DNA of 64,000 nucleotides from Flavobacteriales bacterium (GTDB lineage: Bacteria; Bacteroidota; Bacteroidia; Flavobacteriales_F; PHOS-HE28). Below are positions 9,209 through 17,166 of the stretch, piece by piece. The stretch spans positions 72,948 to 136,947 of the forward strand of contig JADJVC010000001.1 in NCBI GenBank assembly GCA_016710685.1. The letters run 5' to 3'. Made by a program: the position numbers and the translations under genes. The notes under the pieces were generated by a model. It was not told the DNA's origin, did not search any database, and saw only the letters and a program-made list of their open reading frames with translations. Position 1 is the first letter of the stretch. The number at the start of each line of letters is the position of its first letter.

Positions 9209-9643
9209 CATCCTGCGCACTGCTCCGCCGTTCTTTCCGCCGCATGGCGGGGAGGGAGGAAAGTCCGGGCAGCAAAGGGCACCGTGCTTCCTAACGGGAA
9301 GGGGCGCCGCTGGTGACGGTGGCGTTACGGAAAGTGCCACAGAAAGGGAAACCGCCGATCGTTGAAGTTGAAGTGAAGGCCCGCCTTCGCCAAGGCTTCG
9401 GCGAGGCAAGGATGAAAAGGTGGGGTAAGAGCCCACCAGTGCCCCGTGTGAGCGGGGCAGCTTGGTAAACCCCACGGGCTGAAAGACCAAATAAGCTGGA
9501 ACGCCTGCCGCAAGGCAGGCTAAGCGCGGCCCGCGTGATCCAGCGGGTAGGTCGATAGAGGCCGTGCGCGAGCACGGTCCCAGATAGATGGCGGAGGTCC
9601 GCCGCAAGGTGGATACAGGATCCGGCTTATAGGTGCGCAGGCT
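9209..9643 (+). ncRNA. rnpB: RNase P RNA, bacterial type A
   Basis: P4 strands GGAGGAAAGTCCGGGC and ACAGGATCCGGCTTAT; ACAGAAAGGGAAACCGCC, GGTAAGAGCCCACCAG and GGTAAACCCCAC conserved blocks; P1 pairing CCTGCGCAC/GTGCGCAGG. Confidence 0.85.
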
Positions 9644-9649
9644 TTTTTG

Positions 9650-9690
9650 CAAAGGCCCCGGCAGCAATGTTGGGGCCTTTTGCGATTTAA
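9650..9690 (+). terminator. rho-independent terminator after rnpB
   Basis: GGCCCC..GGGGCC hairpin followed by TTTTGCGATTT. Confidence 0.6.
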
Positions 9691-9857
9691 AGCCTTACCA
9701 CGCGCTCAGGTTTTTGCAGAGCATGCGTGCCGTAGGGATGTGCGATCTGCATAGGGCCTCTGGCCCGCCTCAAACGCTGTGAATCTAATTCCGTGTTTTG
9801 GACGGGAGCTCAATTCTTTAATGGGTTGTATAAAAGTGCGGAGGGAGTGGCTAGGGT

Positions 9858-11192
9858 TTAATTCCTATTGAACACCAGAGGCTTTGCAGGTGTAGTCTCG
9901 CGGATGTGGATCATTCCATTGAACTGCTCTTTGGCGATAATCCGGTCGGAACATCTCTTGTAATTCATGAAGACTGCTCCGATATCATAGGTCCGCTGTG
10001 GCGTTGTAAAAATGGGGTCATCAGTAGCGGAGAGGTCCATGAAGAACGCTACTTCCTTGGTTGTGTCAAAAGAGTTCGTCAACGTGTTCCTTTTGGATGG
10101 CGGTACCGTGCATGCCATCCGTCCTTTGTACATGTGCTTCCGCCGGAACACGTATTTGTAAGCCGTGCCATAAAGCGTGTTAGGTCCCTTGAAGGCTTGG
10201 AAGGAACCTTCGCTGAAGGTGAACCCGACCGCGTAATACTTCTCGTTGTAATCGTCCTTCAAGTATCCACCCATGGGGCGCATCACGGAGTTGTTAACGA
10301 TGGACTGGTTGATATGTCCGTTGTGCGCCCAAATGAACATTTTCGACTTCCGCTCCTGCTGGATCTGATGGATGTTGGCGGCCATGCAACTGTCGCGGAA
10401 GTTGTAGCCGGGGGAGAGGTTCTTTACCGCTTGGTCGAAGTTGTCAGAGCAGTGTTGCATCGTCAGGAACCGCGCGCTGGACGAGCTGGTTCGAATGGCC
10501 TCTTCATTCGTATTCAGCCAAGCCTCAAGGAGGGAATGCATCTGGTTCAACGTGTCGGAATAGTGCTGGTCCTTGTCCTGAAGTTTGTGGTAAAGTTCCA
10601 GTTCGGAATGTTGGACCACCGGGCTGATGATGGCTTGCAGTGCTTCCTTGTTCCCGATGTTCAACTTGCCGATGGACCGGCTCAAATACTGGATGGGTGT
10701 ATAAAAATTCTGCATGTCAAAGCCGTAGAACAGAACCTTGTCATCCTGCGCCCTTCCGGCGTTAAAGTCCTTGATCCAAAGTACAAGCTCCTTCATCTCT
10801 GCGTTCTGCCAAGTCCAGAAATCGAAATGCCTTAGAACGGAATCGATGTCACCGATGCCGGAATCGACATAGTCATTGATGGAACTGCATCCTCCGAACG
10901 AGTCTTCGATCCCGAAAATCCTATATCCGTGGTTCTGCACCAAATATTTGAAGGACTCCCGCTTGATGTCGAAGAACTCCTTTGTCCCATGTGTTGCTTC
11001 CCCCATGCCGAACACCAGCACATCGTCAAAACCGGCTTTAGACCGGAAGAAGTCGAAATAGAGGTTGGGGGCGCTTTTTTCGAAAGTATAGATTGTTTCA
11101 TCGGAGGATCCGATCTGCACTACCTCTTGGGAATCGGCCTTGCCAAAAAGGCATGCCATGAATAAGATGGAAAGGGGAGGTGCGATGGTCAT
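9858..11192 (-). CDS. erythromycin esterase (Ere) family protein
   Basis: 444 aa; family-typical N-terminus (VFGMGEATHGTKEF); lower GC than the flanks. Confidence 0.7.
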   Translation of the reverse strand: MTIAPPLSILFMACLFGKADSQEVVQIGSSDETIYTFEKSAPNLYFDFFRSKAGFDDVLVFGMGEATHGTKEFFDIKRESFKYLVQNHGYRIFGIEDSFGGCSSINDYVDSGIGDIDSVLRHFDFWTWQNAEMKELVLWIKDFNAGRAQDDKVLFYGFDMQNFYTPIQYLSRSIGKLNIGNKEALQAIISPVVQHSELELYHKLQDKDQHYSDTLNQMHSLLEAWLNTNEEAIRTSSSSARFLTMQHCSDNFDQAVKNLSPGYNFRDSCMAANIHQIQQERKSKMFIWAHNGHINQSIVNNSVMRPMGGYLKDDYNEKYYAVGFTFSEGSFQAFKGPNTLYGTAYKYVFRRKHMYKGRMACTVPPSKRNTLTNSFDTTKEVAFFMDLSATDDPIFTTPQRTYDIGAVFMNYKRCSDRIIAKEQFNGMIHIRETTPAKPLVFNRN

Positions 11193-11223
11193 GCAGGTGT
11201 GAAGGCGAGTCTTGGGTATTGTT

Positions 11224-11297
11224 ACAGTTGGACAGACTTCGCAAGTCTACTCCCCATACCGATAATGCCCAATCACCTTGTAGCCGAACAAACAATC
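11224..11297. repeat. 'A' repeat copy 1: palindrome AGACTTCGCAAGTCT plus duplicated DUF1287 3' end (encodes ..YKVIGHYRYGE)
   Basis: 74 bp with about 5 mismatches to 11482..11555. Confidence 0.85.
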
Positions 11298-11362
11298 GCT
11301 CGGCCTCCCGCAAGTGTTCCAGCCTTCCACATCGTGCGTTTCCACTTGGCTGGATCCCCAAT

Positions 11363-11485
11363 CTCTACCGCAAGTCTTCCCAGCCAACCAGAGATGGGGT
11401 TCCAGCATACTTAGCTGGGGCGACTTGTGGCAGCTCAGTCGTAGCGTACGGTCGCGTACCTGGAAGTCTTCAGACTTCAACACAG
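11363..11485. repeat. 'B' repeat copy 1 (123 bp)
   Basis: About 80% identical to 13223..13345; ends in the GGAAGTCTTCAGACTTC palindrome. Confidence 0.85.
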
Positions 11486-11555
11486 TTGGACAGACTTCGC
11501 AAGTCTACATCCCATACCGATAATGCCCAATAACCTTGAAGCTGAACAAACAATC
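11482..11555. repeat. 'A' repeat copy 2, covering the true 3' end of the DUF1287 gene plus 23 bp downstream
   Basis: See copy 1. Confidence 0.85.
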
Positions 11556-11933
11556 CTCAAGCACTTGCCCCGCACCAATGTTGTGGACCATCAAATGCCT
11601 TTTGCCATCCGCAGCCTTCCGGTTTGACACAATGCCAATGTGCGTGATGCCGCCTCCCAAGTTCCAACAAACAAGGTCTCCCGGCAGGTAGGTTTTCGGA
11701 TCTTGGAGAAGGTCCAGCTTCCTGTAGGCGCGGATCACAACATCGGTACACACGCCCTTGCTTGCCGGCACATCACCGTTCGGGTAGTCCAGCTTGAAGT
11801 AGGATGGATCGTAATGCACCGTTTGCTTCGTGAGCACTTCCGCAGAATCTGCGAGCTGGGTGTAGAAGTCAGTTTGACCTGAAACCGGAATGAGGGATAG
11901 TGACCAAAGCGATAGGAAGAGCAGAATTCTCAT
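11505..11933 (-). CDS. DUF1287 domain-containing protein, secreted
   Basis: Signal peptide; VHYDPSY..PNGDVP..GVCTDVVIRAY motif typical of DUF1287. Confidence 0.65.
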   Translation of the reverse strand: MRILLFLSLWSLSLIPVSGQTDFYTQLADSAEVLTKQTVHYDPSYFKLDYPNGDVPASKGVCTDVVIRAYRKLDLLQDPKTYLPGDLVCWNLGGGITHIGIVSNRKAADGKRHLMVHNIGAGQVLEDCLFSFKVIGHYRYGM

Positions 11934-12022
11934 CGTGCAGGAGTTATGCTACCCCCCTGTGTAATGGGTAACGGGCAAGGACACCGGAGCGTATTCACTC
12001 AAGTCCCGGTGTTGTCTTACCC

Positions 12023-13174
12023 CTAAAGCACAATGAACCTGATCTGTTCTGATGCATGATCCGTGATCACGTTCATCAGGTACACCCCGCTGGGTAGATC
12101 TTGAACATCAATGTTCGTCGTTCGCGCCTCAACACTTCCACTGGAGACCTTTGCACCAGTAACCGACAGGATCTCATAGGTTGTTCGCTCGCTGATCCGC
12201 GCAACGCTGAGGGTAATGCTTCCTTCACAAGGACTGGGGTATAGCTGATAGGAGACCTTGCTATCTAGAGCCATGGCATTGATACCGGTAGAGATATCCG
12301 GGCACGTGACATTGGTGAGGTAGTTGGACGCCACGGACGGAGTGTCCAGCAACAACGGGCAATAGCACGCATCGTCAATCAGGAAATGCTTCAGCCAGGA
12401 GAGGCCGATCTTGCCGACATATCCTTGGCCTCCTGTTGGACTGTTGGCTACTTCATGATCTCCATTCTCAATTTCAAAGATCAACTTGCTCGTTGTTTCC
12501 GGTGTCAGGTTGTAATGGATATCGGCATGTTGTGCCGGTGGTGCAATTACATCGTTCTCCGCACTGAAGATCAATACAGGGACAGGGTGGTCCAGTTCAG
12601 CAGCGGTGGTCTGGCTATCCAGCCAAGGACAGAGCGCCATAACGGCCTTTAAGGTCGGGTCTGCGGTCGCGGCAAGTTGTGCGCCGCCGCCACCCATGGA
12701 CCAACCACCAACTGCCATCCTATCGAGGTCCAGGTTGCCGACGAGCGGAGAACCGGATCTCGTGTTCTCCTCCGTTATGGTTACGATCGCATCCAGGAGG
12801 GCATCTCTTCTATCGTAAGGATCATCAAAGAGGCTATTGGTGCCTAAGGTCATGGCCACAATGCCATGCGAGGCCAAGAACGGACCCCAATCTTGGATCG
12901 ATGATTGAAAGGATATGAATCCGGGAACCATCGCAATGCTTGCAAAAGGGGGTGTTGCGTCCGTTGGGTAGTAGAGGGTGGCCCCCGAATAGTCCGGGCC
13001 ATTCCTCAAGCCGTTGGACTCGGTGAGGATACCTACGCTGTAAATTCCCGGGTCGGTAATGGAGTCCAGTGTCAACGGATCGCAGCTCTGTGCTTTGCTG
13101 GAACCAGCAAACATGGACAGACAAAGGAGCAGGTACATTCCTTTTGCGTGGACACACTTCTGGGTTCTGTTCAT
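12023..13174 (-). CDS. PETase-like polyesterase / dienelactone hydrolase family esterase with T9SS C-terminal sorting domain
   Basis: Collinear with IsPETase/cutinase-like enzymes: YYPTDA..IAMVPGF.SFQSSI.WGPFLASHGIVAMT, nucleophile elbow GWSMGGGG, FSAENDVIAP (Asp), FEIENGDHEVANS (His). C-terminal Por CTD (LYPSPCEGSITLSV..GVYLMNV). Alternative start at 13138. Confidence 0.8.
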   Translation of the reverse strand: MNRTQKCVHAKGMYLLLCLSMFAGSSKAQSCDPLTLDSITDPGIYSVGILTESNGLRNGPDYSGATLYYPTDATPPFASIAMVPGFISFQSSIQDWGPFLASHGIVAMTLGTNSLFDDPYDRRDALLDAIVTITEENTRSGSPLVGNLDLDRMAVGGWSMGGGGAQLAATADPTLKAVMALCPWLDSQTTAAELDHPVPVLIFSAENDVIAPPAQHADIHYNLTPETTSKLIFEIENGDHEVANSPTGGQGYVGKIGLSWLKHFLIDDACYCPLLLDTPSVASNYLTNVTCPDISTGINAMALDSKVSYQLYPSPCEGSITLSVARISERTTYEILSVTGAKVSSGSVEARTTNIDVQDLPSGVYLMNVITDHASEQIRFIVL

Positions 13175-13222
13175 TGCTCTTTGTTGAATGGGTCGAAGAT
13201 ATCGAATGCAAACGCGACCATG

Positions 13223-13345
13223 CTCTACCGCACGTCTTCCCAGCCAACCCGATCTGGAGTTCCAACAAACAGAGCTGGGGCGACTTGTGGCACCTCAGTC
13301 TTGATGTACGGTTGTTCTGCTGGAAGTCTTCAGACTTCAACACAG
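13223..13345. repeat. 'B' repeat copy 2 (123 bp), 48 bp upstream of the PETase-like gene
   Basis: Aligns to 11363..11485. Confidence 0.85.
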
Positions 13346-13532
13346 ACCGGTAACTCAGCAATAGCTTTGGATTTCAGAAGCCCACAAGTCGCTCCGGCCT
13401 GTACTTGGCAAGAACACACTTTATTACTGGGCCGGGAAGGCTTTAGGGAGGGCTGGAGAGGGTGGGTAACATTGTGCTCCCGACAAGCAACCCGTTCAAC
13501 GGAACATACTGCACCGGAGGAGGAAATCTCGT

Positions 13533-14441
13533 TCAAGCAACGGCTTTGATCACCGCGCCGATATGGTTCATGGCTTTGCCGTAGGTCTCTATGCCATGTC
13601 CCACCTGATGGAAGACCTTCACATCCTTAAGCGTCTTGATGTGCTTTTTCGCATTTTCAATGGACCTTTGGAACGGAAAGAGCAGGTCCTTATCCCCTTC
13701 AAGTAGGTAGGTGTCCACTTTAACCTCTCCCAACTGACCGTTCATATAATATGGCTTTTGCGTCTTGTCCTTATAGCGACTGATGGCGAACAACTCATAG
13801 TCGACCAACAAGTTCTCGCTCGCTGTGGACAGGGTGTGTTCCGGTTTTGAGAATACTGCTTTGTCCAGGAATTTTCGCACGTTTGCTGCAGTTGGTTGGA
13901 TGATCGGGAGCAGATTATAATAGAGGTTTTTCGGAGTCATTGAAAACGGCTGCAAGCAGCCGGGGTTCAAGAGGAAGGCGGCTTTCACCTTTTCAGGCTG
14001 TACAATACCAAGCTTCATGCAGATCAGCCCACCGAACGATGCGCCTGCAACAAAAGTCTTCTCGACCCCTAAATGGTCCAATATTTCAGCTGCCCAAATT
14101 CCGTAATCCAATGAATGAATGTCCGGCGTGTCCCCATGGCTCAGATTGGGCAGTCCGTTGGTCTCCACCATAAAGATGCGCAATTTGCTGTTCAAGTTGT
14201 CCAGCCCTCTATCCAGGTCCCAGATCAATGAGGTCGTTCGTGCACCAGGAAAAATAACGAGCGTTTCAACATCGGGCTCCGCCGTGTTCAGGCCCCAAAC
14301 ATGTGTCTTGCCAAGGGAGGACGGGACTTCAAAGCGTTCGTAGTTTCTCGCGTTATGTGCCTCCAGCTGTTCCACCCATTTTTCAAAGGAGCGAACGTCC
14401 GCTTTCTCATCCTTGAACTTCGATTTGCTCTTAATCTTCAT
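13533..14441 (-). CDS. alpha/beta hydrolase fold protein
   Basis: 302 aa; GASFGG nucleophile elbow, C-terminal His; lower GC. Confidence 0.65.
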   Translation of the reverse strand: MKIKSKSKFKDEKADVRSFEKWVEQLEAHNARNYERFEVPSSLGKTHVWGLNTAEPDVETLVIFPGARTTSLIWDLDRGLDNLNSKLRIFMVETNGLPNLSHGDTPDIHSLDYGIWAAEILDHLGVEKTFVAGASFGGLICMKLGIVQPEKVKAAFLLNPGCLQPFSMTPKNLYYNLLPIIQPTAANVRKFLDKAVFSKPEHTLSTASENLLVDYELFAISRYKDKTQKPYYMNGQLGEVKVDTYLLEGDKDLLFPFQRSIENAKKHIKTLKDVKVFHQVGHGIETYGKAMNHIGAVIKAVA

Positions 14442-14598
14442 TTGCGCTCCTCGTCTGGTTCGGTTTCCTTCAAAGCTGCGAATTTATCGGCCATCTCAAT
14501 TAGTGCATTTACCAATTGGTGTCAGTACCAATGAAACCTAGCAATTTAATGCTGTGCCCAGTTTCTCCGCCGTTCTGGTGGAAGACACTGCGAGGAAC

Positions 14599-17166
14599 TC
14601 AATACAACAACTCATTCCCACCCCCAAAAGGCTTCCGCAGCTCGTACTTCAGATCGTGCAGCACACTCGCCTTCACGTTGATCCGGAACGTAAAGCTTTT
14701 CCGCACGCCCAATGGGATCACGTTCGCGTTGAATTCCCAGCAGTGCAGGTCCCAGTAGAGGTTGAGCGAGGTGGGCGTCCATTCGCCGGCTTCCATGTCG
14801 TAGCCGCTGCTGAAGCCGAGTTTCCAGTATTTGAGGATGTTGAGGTCGCCGCTGAAGAGCACGCTTTGCGTTTGCTGTTCGGTGTATTCGGCTACTTGGT
14901 ACGCCCGCGCCATGGACCAGCTGTAGTTGACGCGCACATGCCACGGGATGCTGAAATTCACCTTCGCGCCTTTGCTGGGGTCGGCTTCCGCTACGACTTG
15001 GTCGTCGCTGCTGCTTCCCGCGAGGGGCTTGCCGTAGCGCTTGCTTTGCAGCTCGAAGCCCAGGGCGGCGTTGGCGTTCGTTAAATGCGCGAGCGCGCCG
15101 TCCGCCGTGCGTGCGGAGCGGTTGATGCGCTGGCCCAACGCGTTGGTGGCATACGGGTCGAAGGCTGCGGCAACGTTCAGGTCCAGGAAGTTGAACAGGC
15201 GCGTGCGGGCAGCGGTGCTCACGGGCGACCAGCGCACGGAATCCTTCAGCAGGTCGTAGTTGGCGTTGATGCCTAAGTAGTCCAGCAATTTCAGCTTTTT
15301 CATTACCGCTTCACCTTTGGCATCGGGCTTTTTGGACAGCACTTTTCCTTCGAGGCTTTGCACAAGGCCTAGTGAAACAAGCCCGCTGGCGTTGGGGTTT
15401 GGCGTGCCGTAAATGCCGATGTCGTAGGGCGAATAGGAACTCTCCGCTCCGCTTGGGCCGTAGGGGCCGAAGATGCGCGTGTCGTTTCCCGGCAGATAGG
15501 TGAGCGCGGCGCTGGGCGTAATGACGTGGCGGATCTGTTTCAGCCTTCCGCCGCGGAACACGTACATGCCGTAAAGCTTGCTGGTGGCGGTGGCGCCGAT
15601 GCTCCAGTCGAAGGTGTTGTTGATGCCGGCAACGGTGTCGGTGAGCAGCGTGTCCGTGGCCTGCACGTAGGTTTTTCGCAGGGCATCGAAGTAGGTGCGG
15701 TCGGTGATGTTGAGCTGCGGATTCAGCGTGAAGGCGCGCGTTTTGAACGAGGTGCTCACCGTGCCGGTATGCCGCACACCGTTGCGCATGCGGTCCAGCA
15801 AATTCGGGATGTTGGCAATGCTGATCTGGTCTTCCGTGGTGTTGAGCCGGTTCTCGAAAACGCTGCTCCACGTTACGCCGATGTTCTCGTACCACTTCGG
15901 CGCACCGGCCGCAGGCTTGCCGAACCACGTGCCGGGGAAGAAGCGCTGCACGTTGAAATTCACCGAGGGCAGCGTTACGTCGAAGGTGCGGTTAAGCGTG
16001 TTCTGGCTGTGCCGCGCGCCCACGCTCAGGCTGTACGGTTTGCCCGTCCACAGGTGGTTCCAGGTGATGTTGCTCTGGAAGGTGTTGCTCAAATAATCCT
16101 GCGTGGTGCTGTTGAAGTTGTTGGTGAAATTCTGGCTGGAACCCGCGTTCACGCTGGCGTTAAAGCGGTCGGTGAGGCTGGCTTTGGGGTCGAGCAAATG
16201 GTTCCAGCGGATAAAAAACGTACGCTGCTCGCTGAAATCCGGGTATTCCTGAATGCTGTTGAGCTTGTCGCTGTACTGCAGGTCCATGGAGCCGCTGAAG
16301 CGGTAGCGCTGCTTGTAGCGCGTTACGGAGCGCAGGCCCCAACTGCCCCGGCTGTAGATGTCCGCCGTGAGCTGCTCGTCGAAGTTGTCGCCCAGGGGCA
16401 GATAATAGCCGCCGTTCAGCAGGTACAAGCCGTATTGGTCGCTGGTGCCCCAACTGGGAATGAGCAGGCCCGCGCTGCCGCCCTTGTGGTTGGGGAAGAG
16501 GCCGAAAGGCACCACCAACGGCGTGGGAATTTTGCCGATCTTCATGTACGCGGGCCCCGCTACGATCTTGTCGTCCGGTATCACGATCATGCGGCTTACG
16601 GCGAACTGGTAGTGGGGGTGGGGCCGGTCGCACGTGGTGAGCCTGCCGCCCAAGCTGTGTATTTCGCCGTTCGCGTGGCGCTTGCTTACGCGGGCCAGCG
16701 CATAGAGCTGCGATTCCTGCGTGCGCACTTCCTTGATCAAGCCTTCCTTGGTGTCGAAATTGTAGCGGATGCTGTCCGCCGTTACGTCTTGACCGCCTTG
16801 CGTGAACGTGGGCGCGCCCGCTGGGTTTCCGGTGCTGTCCAAGGTGCCGAATGCCTGCACTTCGTTCTTCGCCAAGTCCAGCAAAATGCGGTCCGCCTGC
16901 AGCACCACATCCCCGTATTCCACCTTGGCGGCACCAAAGAGGTACACGGTTTGCAAGGCCACGTCGTATCGCATGCTGTCGCGCGCACTGTACTTCACTT
17001 CATCCCCCAAGCCTTGCGCCTGTGCGGACATCCCCGCCATTCCTAACAATACCGTGATGAAAATGCACCTCGCCACGCTGGAAAGCCTCACCACGGTGGG
17101 GCTACCTTCGCGCTCGCCGCTGAAAAGGGCGGCACGGATCGCGGTTATGCGGGGTGAAAAAATCAT
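14599..17166 (-). CDS. lptD: LPS-assembly protein LptD-like (OstA N-terminal domain plus large beta-barrel)
   Basis: 855 aa; OstA-like N-terminus (YDVALQTVYLFGAAKVEYGDVVLQADRILLD); typical Bacteroidota LptD length. Probable true start near 17040 (MAGMSAQAQG). Confidence 0.7.
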   Translation of the reverse strand: MIFSPRITAIRAALFSGEREGSPTVVRLSSVARCIFITVLLGMAGMSAQAQGLGDEVKYSARDSMRYDVALQTVYLFGAAKVEYGDVVLQADRILLDLAKNEVQAFGTLDSTGNPAGAPTFTQGGQDVTADSIRYNFDTKEGLIKEVRTQESQLYALARVSKRHANGEIHSLGGRLTTCDRPHPHYQFAVSRMIVIPDDKIVAGPAYMKIGKIPTPLVVPFGLFPNHKGGSAGLLIPSWGTSDQYGLYLLNGGYYLPLGDNFDEQLTADIYSRGSWGLRSVTRYKQRYRFSGSMDLQYSDKLNSIQEYPDFSEQRTFFIRWNHLLDPKASLTDRFNASVNAGSSQNFTNNFNSTTQDYLSNTFQSNITWNHLWTGKPYSLSVGARHSQNTLNRTFDVTLPSVNFNVQRFFPGTWFGKPAAGAPKWYENIGVTWSSVFENRLNTTEDQISIANIPNLLDRMRNGVRHTGTVSTSFKTRAFTLNPQLNITDRTYFDALRKTYVQATDTLLTDTVAGINNTFDWSIGATATSKLYGMYVFRGGRLKQIRHVITPSAALTYLPGNDTRIFGPYGPSGAESSYSPYDIGIYGTPNPNASGLVSLGLVQSLEGKVLSKKPDAKGEAVMKKLKLLDYLGINANYDLLKDSVRWSPVSTAARTRLFNFLDLNVAAAFDPYATNALGQRINRSARTADGALAHLTNANAALGFELQSKRYGKPLAGSSSDDQVVAEADPSKGAKVNFSIPWHVRVNYSWSMARAYQVAEYTEQQTQSVLFSGDLNILKYWKLGFSSGYDMEAGEWTPTSLNLYWDLHCWEFNANVIPLGVRKSFTFRINVKASVLHDLKYELRKPFGGGNELLY

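Follow-up and report, generated by a model that had tools for sequence, protein, structure and literature searches.

We analyzed a 64,000-nt stretch of contig JADJVC010000001.1 from a Flavobacteriales bacterium (assembly GCA_016710685.1), hereafter called the window, in which two short repeats, B and A, are interspersed with accessory genes between the LptD gene and the RNase P RNA gene rnpB (Table 1). The five protein-coding genes of this region (encoding LptD, an alpha/beta hydrolase, a PETase-like hydrolase with a type IX secretion system [T9SS] sorting domain, a DUF1287 protein, and an erythromycin esterase family protein [Ere]) all share the minus strand, and the G+C content is 50 to 53% within 9700-14550, compared with 58 to 60% in the flanks on either side. 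The gene calls of a preliminary description, made from the sequence alone, were borne out (Erythro_esteras, DUF1287, PETase plus Por_Secre_tail, and alpha/beta hydrolase). That description had offered two explanations for the repeats, namely, a duplicated promoter or operator module or a set of integron-like cassette boundaries. Here, we present evidence that B probably belongs instead to a family of repetitive extragenic palindromic (REP)-type elements.

Both repeats proved to be real. B occurs without gaps at 11358-11485 and 13218-13345, with 83% identity over 128 nt; for the 123-nt core first delimited, said to be about 80% identical, we measured 83.7%. The second copy, B2, lies upstream of the PETase-like start codon at 13174, by 48 nt with the original limits and 43 nt with our redrawn ones. 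The two A copies are 93% identical over 74 nt, and the composition of A2 (Table 1) matches the 17 codons plus 23 bp reported before. The palindromes also sit where they had been placed, and their frequency is above chance. The palindrome of B, HP1 (GGAAGTCTTCAGACTTC), is found at 11462-11478 and 13322-13338, and none of 100 shuffles contained as many matches. The palindrome of A, P1 (AGACTTCGCAAGTCT), likewise present in two copies, overlaps the TAG stop codon of DUF1287 by 2 nt and is predicted to form a DNA hairpin (-4.7 kcal/mol, z -2.5). The half-site AAGTCT/AGACTT is concentrated here, with 9 of its 17 occurrences in the whole 64 kb falling within 11150-13600, where approximately 0.65 would be expected. 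Searches of the window with blastn, nhmmer, and a covariance model (R1) found no copies of A or B beyond those listed.

Table 1. Genes, repeats, and hairpins of the LptD-rnpB region in window coordinates (R1, covariance model; L numbers, public loci used for comparison)
Feature	Coordinates	Strand	Remarks
LptD gene	14599-17166	minus	
Alpha/beta hydrolase gene	13533-14441	minus	No ortholog in strains L003, L020, and L065
Third REP copy (Type II-like), decayed	13316-13464	plus	R1, 39 bits, E 1e-8; nhmmer, E 5e-9
REP copy B2 (Type I)	13211-13345	minus	R1, 99 bits; 43 nt upstream of the PETase-like ATG
PETase-like hydrolase gene with T9SS sorting domain (PETase + Por_Secre_tail)	12023-13174	minus	Conserved core of the locus
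DUF1287 gene	11505-11933	minus	153-bp in-frame deletion relative to every other strain
A2	11482-11555	minus	True DUF1287 3' end (16 codons + stop) plus 23 nt including P1; L062 homology ends at 11483 (A2/B1 junction)
P1 palindrome, AGACTTGCGAAGTCT (6-3-6)	11492-11506; second copy, 11234-11248	none	Overlaps the DUF1287 stop
REP copy B1 (Type I)	11351-11485	minus	HP1, linker, and long bulged HP2; R1, 105 bits, E 7e-27; nhmmer, E 1e-33
HP1 of B1, GAAGTCTTCAGACTTC	11463-11478	none	Palindrome of the preliminary description; 6- to 8-bp stem, YGAA loop
HP2 of B1	11368-11430	minus	2x2 internal loop, 29-nt terminal loop
Segment x	11298-11357	minus	60 nt separating B1 from A1; possible degenerate REP 3' arm, GGCTGGAACACTTGCGGGAGG
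A1	11224-11297	minus	Orphan A copy; abuts the conserved leader of the Ere gene (TGTAACAATACC...)
Erythromycin esterase family gene (Ere)	9858-11192	minus	Pfam PF05139 (Erythro_esteras), E 2e-52; downstream of B1-x-A1
RNase P RNA gene (rnpB)	9212-9645	plus	

B is a member of a dispersed repeat family. A search pattern taken from its conserved blocks (GAAGTCTGAAGACTTC, a gap of 25 to 45 nt, and ACAAGTC) matched four stretches in GTDB species genomes, against 0.36 expected by our own arithmetic; three of these came from Cryomorpha or Flavobacteriales metagenome-assembled genomes (MAGs), and the fourth, from an "uncultured Bacteroidetes" MAG (L016), is not a family member. A slightly relaxed pattern matched 40 stretches among metagenome contigs, and the viral contigs scanned with the family pattern gave no match. 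All organism-named matches were Flavobacteriales, Cryomorpha, or Bacteroidetes MAGs. With an nhmmer profile of six copies, we obtained 120 matches, corresponding to 66 distinct copies at 44 public loci, and family copies align over the full unit of approximately 135 nt with about 65 to 72% identity to B. In relatives, at least six copies were counted in two stretches (L022 and L031) of one 317-kb contig.

The unit consists of the short hairpin HP1, a variable linker of 33 to 37 nt, and a longer hairpin, HP2. HP1 has the consensus GTGAAGTC-YGAA-GACTTCAC, and its short form, GAAGTCYGAAGACTTC, is the palindrome that the preliminary description had recognized. HP2 reads CCCACAAGTC-GC-CCCGGC, a loop of approximately 29 nt, and GCCGG-GAA-GACTTGCGGG, followed by AGCG, and it keeps an A-C mismatch and a 2x2 internal loop. 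There are two subtypes, which have HP2 in common and differ in HP1 (GAAGTC... or GCAGTC...): Type I, which includes B1 and B2, carries the standard HP1, and Type II has GGCAGTCTGAAGACTGCC in that place. Copies occur as singlets, as head-to-head Type II/Type I doublets spaced 40 to 80 nt apart (L021, L033, L039, L049, L052, L053, and L057), as a gene-free head-to-tail array with a 122-nt period (L031), and as alternating arrays (L032/L056 and L014). According to crude open reading frame (ORF) calls, copies lie between convergent genes at L032, L033, and L057, and the family is found in both directions relative to neighboring genes.

Pairing within the hairpins was assessed with a 24-pair structure of our own on 33 Type I copies. 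Standard pairs filled 93.8% of the cells, compared with 28 to 43% when the 3' partners were slid, and 14 cells had changed on both sides, a value that none of 500 shuffles reached. The core stem of HP1 showed no variation in any of the 33 family members. In an alignment of 65 distinct copies, which was fitted to the covariance model and is hence biased toward the structure, 41 copies have A-T and 19 have C-G at one HP1 pair, the position that distinguishes Type I from Type II. HP2 pairs also have alternatives, with C-G replaced by A-T or T-A, G-C by A-T, and A-T by C-G (three copies each), and the CCCCAGC/GCTGGG of the window is a compensated variant of CCCCGGC/GCCGGG. This covariation is the pattern expected if intrastrand pairing matters. 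Counts of G-T versus A-C showed no decisive strand preference.

The family is physically linked to a transposase gene. At seven independent loci (L019, L022, L025, L034, L042, L044, and L054), inverted Type II and Type I copies spaced 530 to 580 nt apart flank a conserved ORF of 182 amino acids (aa), in the layout reverse-complemented Type II, ORF, Type I; at L025, HP1 lies upstream of the ORF, 19 nt from the ATG, and downstream of it, 5 nt from the stop codon. The L025 product scored 90.7 bits against NCBIfam NF047646 (REP_Tyr_transpos, REP-associated tyrosine transposase, or RAYT; cutoff, 80) and 31.9 bits against Pfam Y1_Tnp (PF01797; cutoff, 23), but only 26 bits against the IS200 model, below its cutoff of 55. 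It carries an HUH motif (SNHVHLI) and a tyrosine motif (LNYLHDNP), and the nearest solved relatives of the 182-aa protein are IS200/IS605 family transposases. The leader CCGCACGGAACTACCTTCGGAGC, which precedes the RAYT start codon, is retained in the head-to-head doublets, and at L053 this leader runs directly into the final RAYT codons (GGAGCCGTATTGA). This shows the doublets to be derived from the RAYT unit by internal deletion, and since inverted copies flank the RAYT gene at seven loci, B is best described as a REP/REPIN-type element.

We put at roughly 85% the probability that B1, B2, and the third copy of the window are REP-type elements, nonautonomous relatives of the RAYT unit, and that A results from a local rearrangement. 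On this account, B is ordinary selfish DNA, neither a promoter switch nor an integron-like cassette site. The putative mobile unit of related Flavobacteriales comprises a RAYT gene of the HUH/Y1 family between two inverted, two-hairpin copies of approximately 135 nt, and the recurring GAAGTCT/AGACTTC palindromes are the stems of REP hairpins. By analogy with E. coli TnpA(REP) and IS200/IS605, these hairpins may form in single-stranded DNA, where the RAYT would bind and cut them, and the cut REP sequence could then be copied into other intergenic sites. The window copies may in addition have a side effect on transcript ends.

Several known systems invite comparison. As in the REP/BIME/REPIN-RAYT systems of E. 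coli and Pseudomonas, extragenic palindromic repeats occur as singlets, head-to-head doublets, and clusters, inverted copies surround one small HUH/Y1 transposase gene, and doublets behave as nonautonomous derivatives. Unlike a classical REP of 20 to 40 nt, the present unit measures approximately 135 nt and contains two different hairpins; moreover, it lacks a GTAG/CGTC tag, the RAYT is flanked by two distinct subtypes, and the host is a Flavobacteriales bacterium. The ERIC, Correia, and BOX families are likewise strain-polymorphic intergenic imperfect palindromes of approximately 100 to 150 nt but are not known to have a dedicated flanking transposase gene of their own. The 182-aa enzyme most resembles TnpA(REP) subclass 2.6 (RAYT group 5), which Quentin et al. 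(2018; PMC6006769) describe as mostly from Bacteroidetes, with a mean length of 179 aa and the motifs NH[LIV]H and YIH[QN]NP. The phylum agrees, NHVH fits the first motif, and YLHDNP is close to the second; the assignment to the subclass is one by motifs and description. That description characterizes the flanks of these genes only as "atypical secondary structures" with copies elsewhere in the genome and does not give a sequence family, two subtypes, or deletion-derived doublets (PMC6006769). In the analysis of Bertels et al., the flanking 16-mers of group 5 were as frequent as those of insertion sequences (PMC5581495). For the little-studied RAYTs of Bacteroidetes, the present data define a REP family explicitly in both sequence and structure, with a two-hairpin unit, two subtypes, and deletion-derived doublets.

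Within the window, R1 detected exactly three copies, namely, B1, B2, and an inverted Type II-like copy absent from the preliminary description. This third copy stands head to head with B2, HP1 being common to both, so that the two form a doublet; it carries the arm CCACAAGTCGCTCCGGC at 13382-13398 and points into the 3' end of the hydrolase gene. The HP2 arms of B1, in minus-strand orientation, are CCACAAGTCGCCCCAGC (11430-11414) and GCTGGGAAGACTTGCGG (11384-11368). Folding predictions recover HP1 and HP2 alike in B1, B2, and the L025 copy that adjoins the RAYT gene. As single-stranded DNA, the L025 copy gave the most stable predicted fold (-32.4 kcal/mol, z -4.5), and the lower stability of the window copies is in line with their decay: B1 (-23.0 kcal/mol, z -2.5), B2, with a weak fold (-18.6 kcal/mol, z -0.3), and the third copy (-18.1 kcal/mol, z -0.2 [-0.16]). 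Segment x may contain a degenerate REP 3' arm, as suggested by eye and by its L065 ortholog, which nhmmer aligned weakly with model positions 84 to 127 (E 0.038).

Exact-protein look-ups with the PETase-like and DUF1287 proteins of the window matched no record, and relatives of the locus were reached through homologs. A 99%-identical relative of the PETase-like protein is encoded on 14 contigs (JGI metagenomes and the NCBI MAG GCA_049663405.1, a Flavobacteriales bacterium). B1 and B2 are unchanged on 14 sister contigs, and L010 ends inside B1. In L003, L020, and L065, the hydrolase gene has been lost together with the first 39 nt of B2. B1 and B2 differ from each other by 17% yet are invariant among strains, and the window copies are probably old relics that are no longer mobile.

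A number of observations weigh against a REP origin of B. Neither the 64-kb window (best tblastn E, 0.19; no HUH...Y..NP motif) nor the 21-kb sister loci contained a RAYT, and none was found in L001 to L013. The window holds only three copies in 64 kb, all within one low-G+C island, and each of B1 and B2 is the same in at least 14 strain contigs, so that nothing points to recent movement. Owing to the youth of the family and the conservation of its sequence, covariation is modest. Finally, the GTAG or CGTC tag at the foot of the hairpin is absent, and the consensus flanks read ...GGTGTGAAGTC... and ...GCGGGAGCG; this absence fits the "atypical" structures of the Bacteroidetes subclass 2.6 and thus argues against a canonical REP but not against the RAYT-associated class.

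The nearest competitor holds that the unit is an active insertion sequence of the IS200/IS605 type and that solo copies are derivatives resembling miniature inverted-repeat transposable elements (MITEs) of the PATE type, in place of a domesticated REP-RAYT system. We regard this as unlikely. The protein belongs to the Y1_Tnp superfamily, IS200/IS605 elements and PATEs also combine a Y1 transposase with subterminal hairpins as recognition elements and internally deleted nonautonomous copies, the derivation of doublets by internal deletion of the full unit is the classic origin of MITEs, and one contig (L054) carries several RAYT fragments. However, the protein passes the equivalog cutoff of REP_Tyr_transpos and fails that of IS200, no tnpB accompanies the 182-aa ORF, and among the loci sampled, copies linked to a RAYT are far rarer than solo and doublet copies. 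The tyrosine motif is also of the Y...NP form, which PMC6006769 assigns to class 2 TnpA(REP), and not of the Y...Q form of class 1.

We consider it very unlikely that B represents, or has turned into, a structured RNA (for example, a leader, a small RNA, or an element that shapes transcript 3' ends). Two conserved hairpins with some compensatory changes would suit such a role, and the HP1 of B1 begins 26 nt past the DUF1287 stop codon. In E. coli, REPs can stabilize upstream mRNA or attenuate transcription, which lends the idea some precedent. Against it, Rfam 15 gave no match to B at the gathering score or at an E value of 10 or less, the orientation relative to neighboring genes is inconsistent, and the RAYT link accounts for the structure without RNA. 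An RNA function would in any case be compatible with the REP explanation, as a side effect of the element.

We give still less credence to the first proposal of the preliminary description, that B is a duplicated promoter or operator module whose palindromes are sites for a dimeric regulator co-regulating secreted hydrolases. Its appeal lies in the position of the repeats: B1 and B2 are each upstream of, and co-oriented with, a hydrolase gene, B2 by 43 nt and B1 by 166 nt (to the Ere ATG), P1 and HP1 are perfect palindromes with the common half-site AAGTCT, and at L015 a copy lies in a divergent intergenic region approximately 100 nt before the gene for a signal-peptide protein. The wider distribution of the family argues against it, since copies are found in both orientations, between convergent genes, in the gene-free 122-nt-period (L031) and alternating (L032/L056) arrays, and on both sides of the transposase gene. 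In the window itself, the third copy is directed into the 3' end of the hydrolase gene. Moreover, the compensatory changes maintain pairing within a strand, for which a double-stranded operator has no use, and L011 and L058, which lack B, still have the PETase gene with its 35-nt leader.

Least credible of all is the second proposal, that B is an attC-like site and the island an integron-like cassette array without an integrase (a cluster of attC sites lacking integron integrases, or CALIN). Like attC sites, which are imperfect palindromes of approximately 60 to 140 nt between co-oriented accessory genes and act as folded single strands (as REPs probably also do), B places a 120- to 130-nt imperfect palindrome between co-oriented genes; GTCCAAC (RYYYAAC) and GTTGGCT lie 110 nt apart around B1, and the gene content between LptD and rnpB differs between relatives, with boundaries at repeats. 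However, the R''/L''...L'/R' architecture is missing, with no L''/L' pairing beside the putative R boxes and GTTGGCT in place of GTTRRRY, and the conserved hairpins are internal, not terminal. Sites of the attC type have only their structure in common, but B copies from different genomes also agree in sequence, and these copies are found in both orientations and in arrays without genes. The enzyme linked to the family is a RAYT and not IntI, and genes called within 10 kb on either side on the sister contigs gave no integrase family Pfam match (the protein scan did not extend to the rest of the 64 kb). What survives of the proposal is its core, that the palindromes are hairpin sites of mobile DNA served by a dedicated single-stranded DNA recombinase, here a RAYT (an HUH tyrosine transposase) instead of an integrase; the repeats, moreover, vary among strains and mark the borders of gene modules in which relatives differ. 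The tempting reading of a shared regulatory switch, or of a new integron-like system, beside a PETase-like gene is thereby removed. B as a coding remnant, being open in several frames, was rejected since its 78-aa ORF has no Pfam match or coherent protein similarity.

The A repeat stands outside the REP family and appears to be a locally duplicated DUF1287 3' end, polymorphic among strains, whose copies enclose B1 and a putative REP fragment. P1, looked for beside family members elsewhere, was found only in the locus of this species. A relative, L062 (PETase 95% and DUF1287 90% identical), has an imperfect ortholog of it (AGAATTGTGAAGTCT), so P1 is ancestral DUF1287 3' flank and not a piece of the REP family. 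The DUF1287 3' flank of L062 reads TAGAATTGTGAAGTCTTTCCAACTG, and its homology with the window stops at 11483; past this point, L062 has a different palindromic doublet (GACCCTGCGG / CCGCAGGGTC). At the other end, A1 stops exactly where the Ere leader starts, a leader that recurs in conserved form at L063 and L064, two unrelated Ere loci. From the A2/B1 and A1/leader junctions, it follows that A1 and A2 enclose B1 together with the 60 nt of segment x. Since no target duplication is made in IS200-type transposition, A is not a target-site duplication.

A complete A1 is present only in the window, L003, L020, and L065 to L067; in L001, L002, and L004 to L009, 21 nt replace most of it, and in L010, which ends in B1, the A1 region is not covered. 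The 51 coding nucleotides exist in three versions (window A2, window A1, and A2 of L002/L003) that differ at 5 to 7 positions, and the mosaic arrangement of these differences suggests that gene conversion has occurred between copies. Two origins fit these data, an internal duplication of the DUF1287 end and the illegitimate joining of an incoming fragment (DUF1287 3' end plus Ere) with homology in rnpB/Smr as its anchor. The most likely course of events would be either such joining or a duplication with subsequent gene conversion, during turnover of the LptD-rnpB interval. The evidence points both ways: in L003, the duplicated stretch possibly takes in the first nucleotides of B1 (CCAACTGTGT), which favors internal duplication, and the 7% divergence and mosaic substitutions of A are equally compatible with import from another strain. 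Three further candidates were set aside. Travel of Ere together with DUF1287, with A1 imported, is unsupported, the two nearest nonorthologous Ere loci (L063 and L064) being without DUF1287; the 60 nt between B1 and A1 showed, codon-wise and by eye, no similarity past A that would mark a longer decayed DUF1287 pseudogene; and differences between A1 and A2 are not adenine specific, nor was a reverse transcriptase seen nearby, as a diversity-generating retroelement with template and variable repeats would require.

Three side observations may be added. In the A1-deleted strains, the replacement (L002:12015-12052) forms a perfect small hairpin (CCGGG-GAATTAT-CCCGG), which suggests a templated repair event of the quasi-palindrome type. 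The L062 doublet (1675-1790) has the form CCCGTAGGGTCTC...GTGACCCTGCGG...CCGCAGGGTCCTC...GAGACCCTGCGGGAGG, with a 3' end similar to the REP 3' arm. This doublet may represent a second REP family with the same insertion point as B1, and the site just after CCAACTG has thus taken up palindromic repeats twice. The Ere leader (TTGTAACAATRCC, approximately 25 nt, and the ATG) lies at 11193-11223 in the window, 4930-4965 in L063, and 4390-4425 in L064 and may be the promoter or translation signal of the gene itself.

The distant relatives L011, L013, and L058 (approximately 88 to 90% identical) keep the LptD...rnpB/Smr frame without B. Their PETase gene is retained at about 90% identity over a span that runs from 35 nt ahead of the start codon through the stop codon, and their other neighbors include CHU_C, ECF sigma factor, beta-lactamase, and YkuD genes. 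Because the neighbors differ in relatives without B, the locus is a gene-turnover hot spot, and B is lineage specific here. Across the LptD-rnpB/Smr interval (9212-14598 in the window; L011, L013, and L058 to L062), gene sets drawn from CHU_C, PETase, DUF1287, YkuD, ECF sigma factor, beta-lactamase, Ere, and alpha/beta hydrolase differ, and the flanks are collinear. The window DUF1287 gene lacks 153 bp (51 codons, in frame) relative to all other strain contigs, with a junction at approximately 11714 (11700-11730) and two GACCT repeats flanking the deletion. To its left, the window is nearest the L002 haplotype (99.1% versus 96.7%), and to its right the L065 haplotype (99.0% versus 98.1%). The window is thus a mosaic of two strain haplotypes that switches at this private deletion, either a real recombinant or a chimeric metagenome assembly.

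Some module boundaries coincide with repeats. Homology of the PETase module with B-less relatives begins within approximately 10 nt of the B2 3' end, DUF1287-module homology with L062 ends exactly at the B1 5' end, where L062 has its own palindromic doublet, the strain-specific loss of the hydrolase gene ends inside B2, and the A duplication brackets B1. These coincidences permit but do not demonstrate that REP hairpins are break-and-join points for accessory-gene swaps in the hot spot, an idea that we consider unlikely; if true, the RAYT/REP system would be a driver of cassette-like gene turnover. For the annotation or engineering of PETase-like loci, the repeats are a likely cause of strain-to-strain rearrangement and assembly errors.

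Minor observations were made at other loci. An extra GC-rich palindrome of approximately 20 nt (...GCCTGCGGCAGGCAGGC...) occupies the HP2 loop at L051:2522-2678, L025:1649-1812, L052:1260-1424, and L040:7468-7655, as if a second small element were nesting in REP loops. The AT-rich Bacteroidetes MAG L016 contains, at 1000-1240, a tandem array of approximately 12 units of 21 to 22 nt (CATCACAAGTCTTCAGACTTC), each with the HP1 palindrome and CACAAGTC. In a Cryomorpha ignava MAG (L014:89-6172), two REP doublets with a 361-nt period lie downstream of a 1,028-aa ORF, by eye suggestive of an RHS/YD-repeat protein, and also adjoin a 335-aa ORF judged by eye to resemble an IS30-type transposase.

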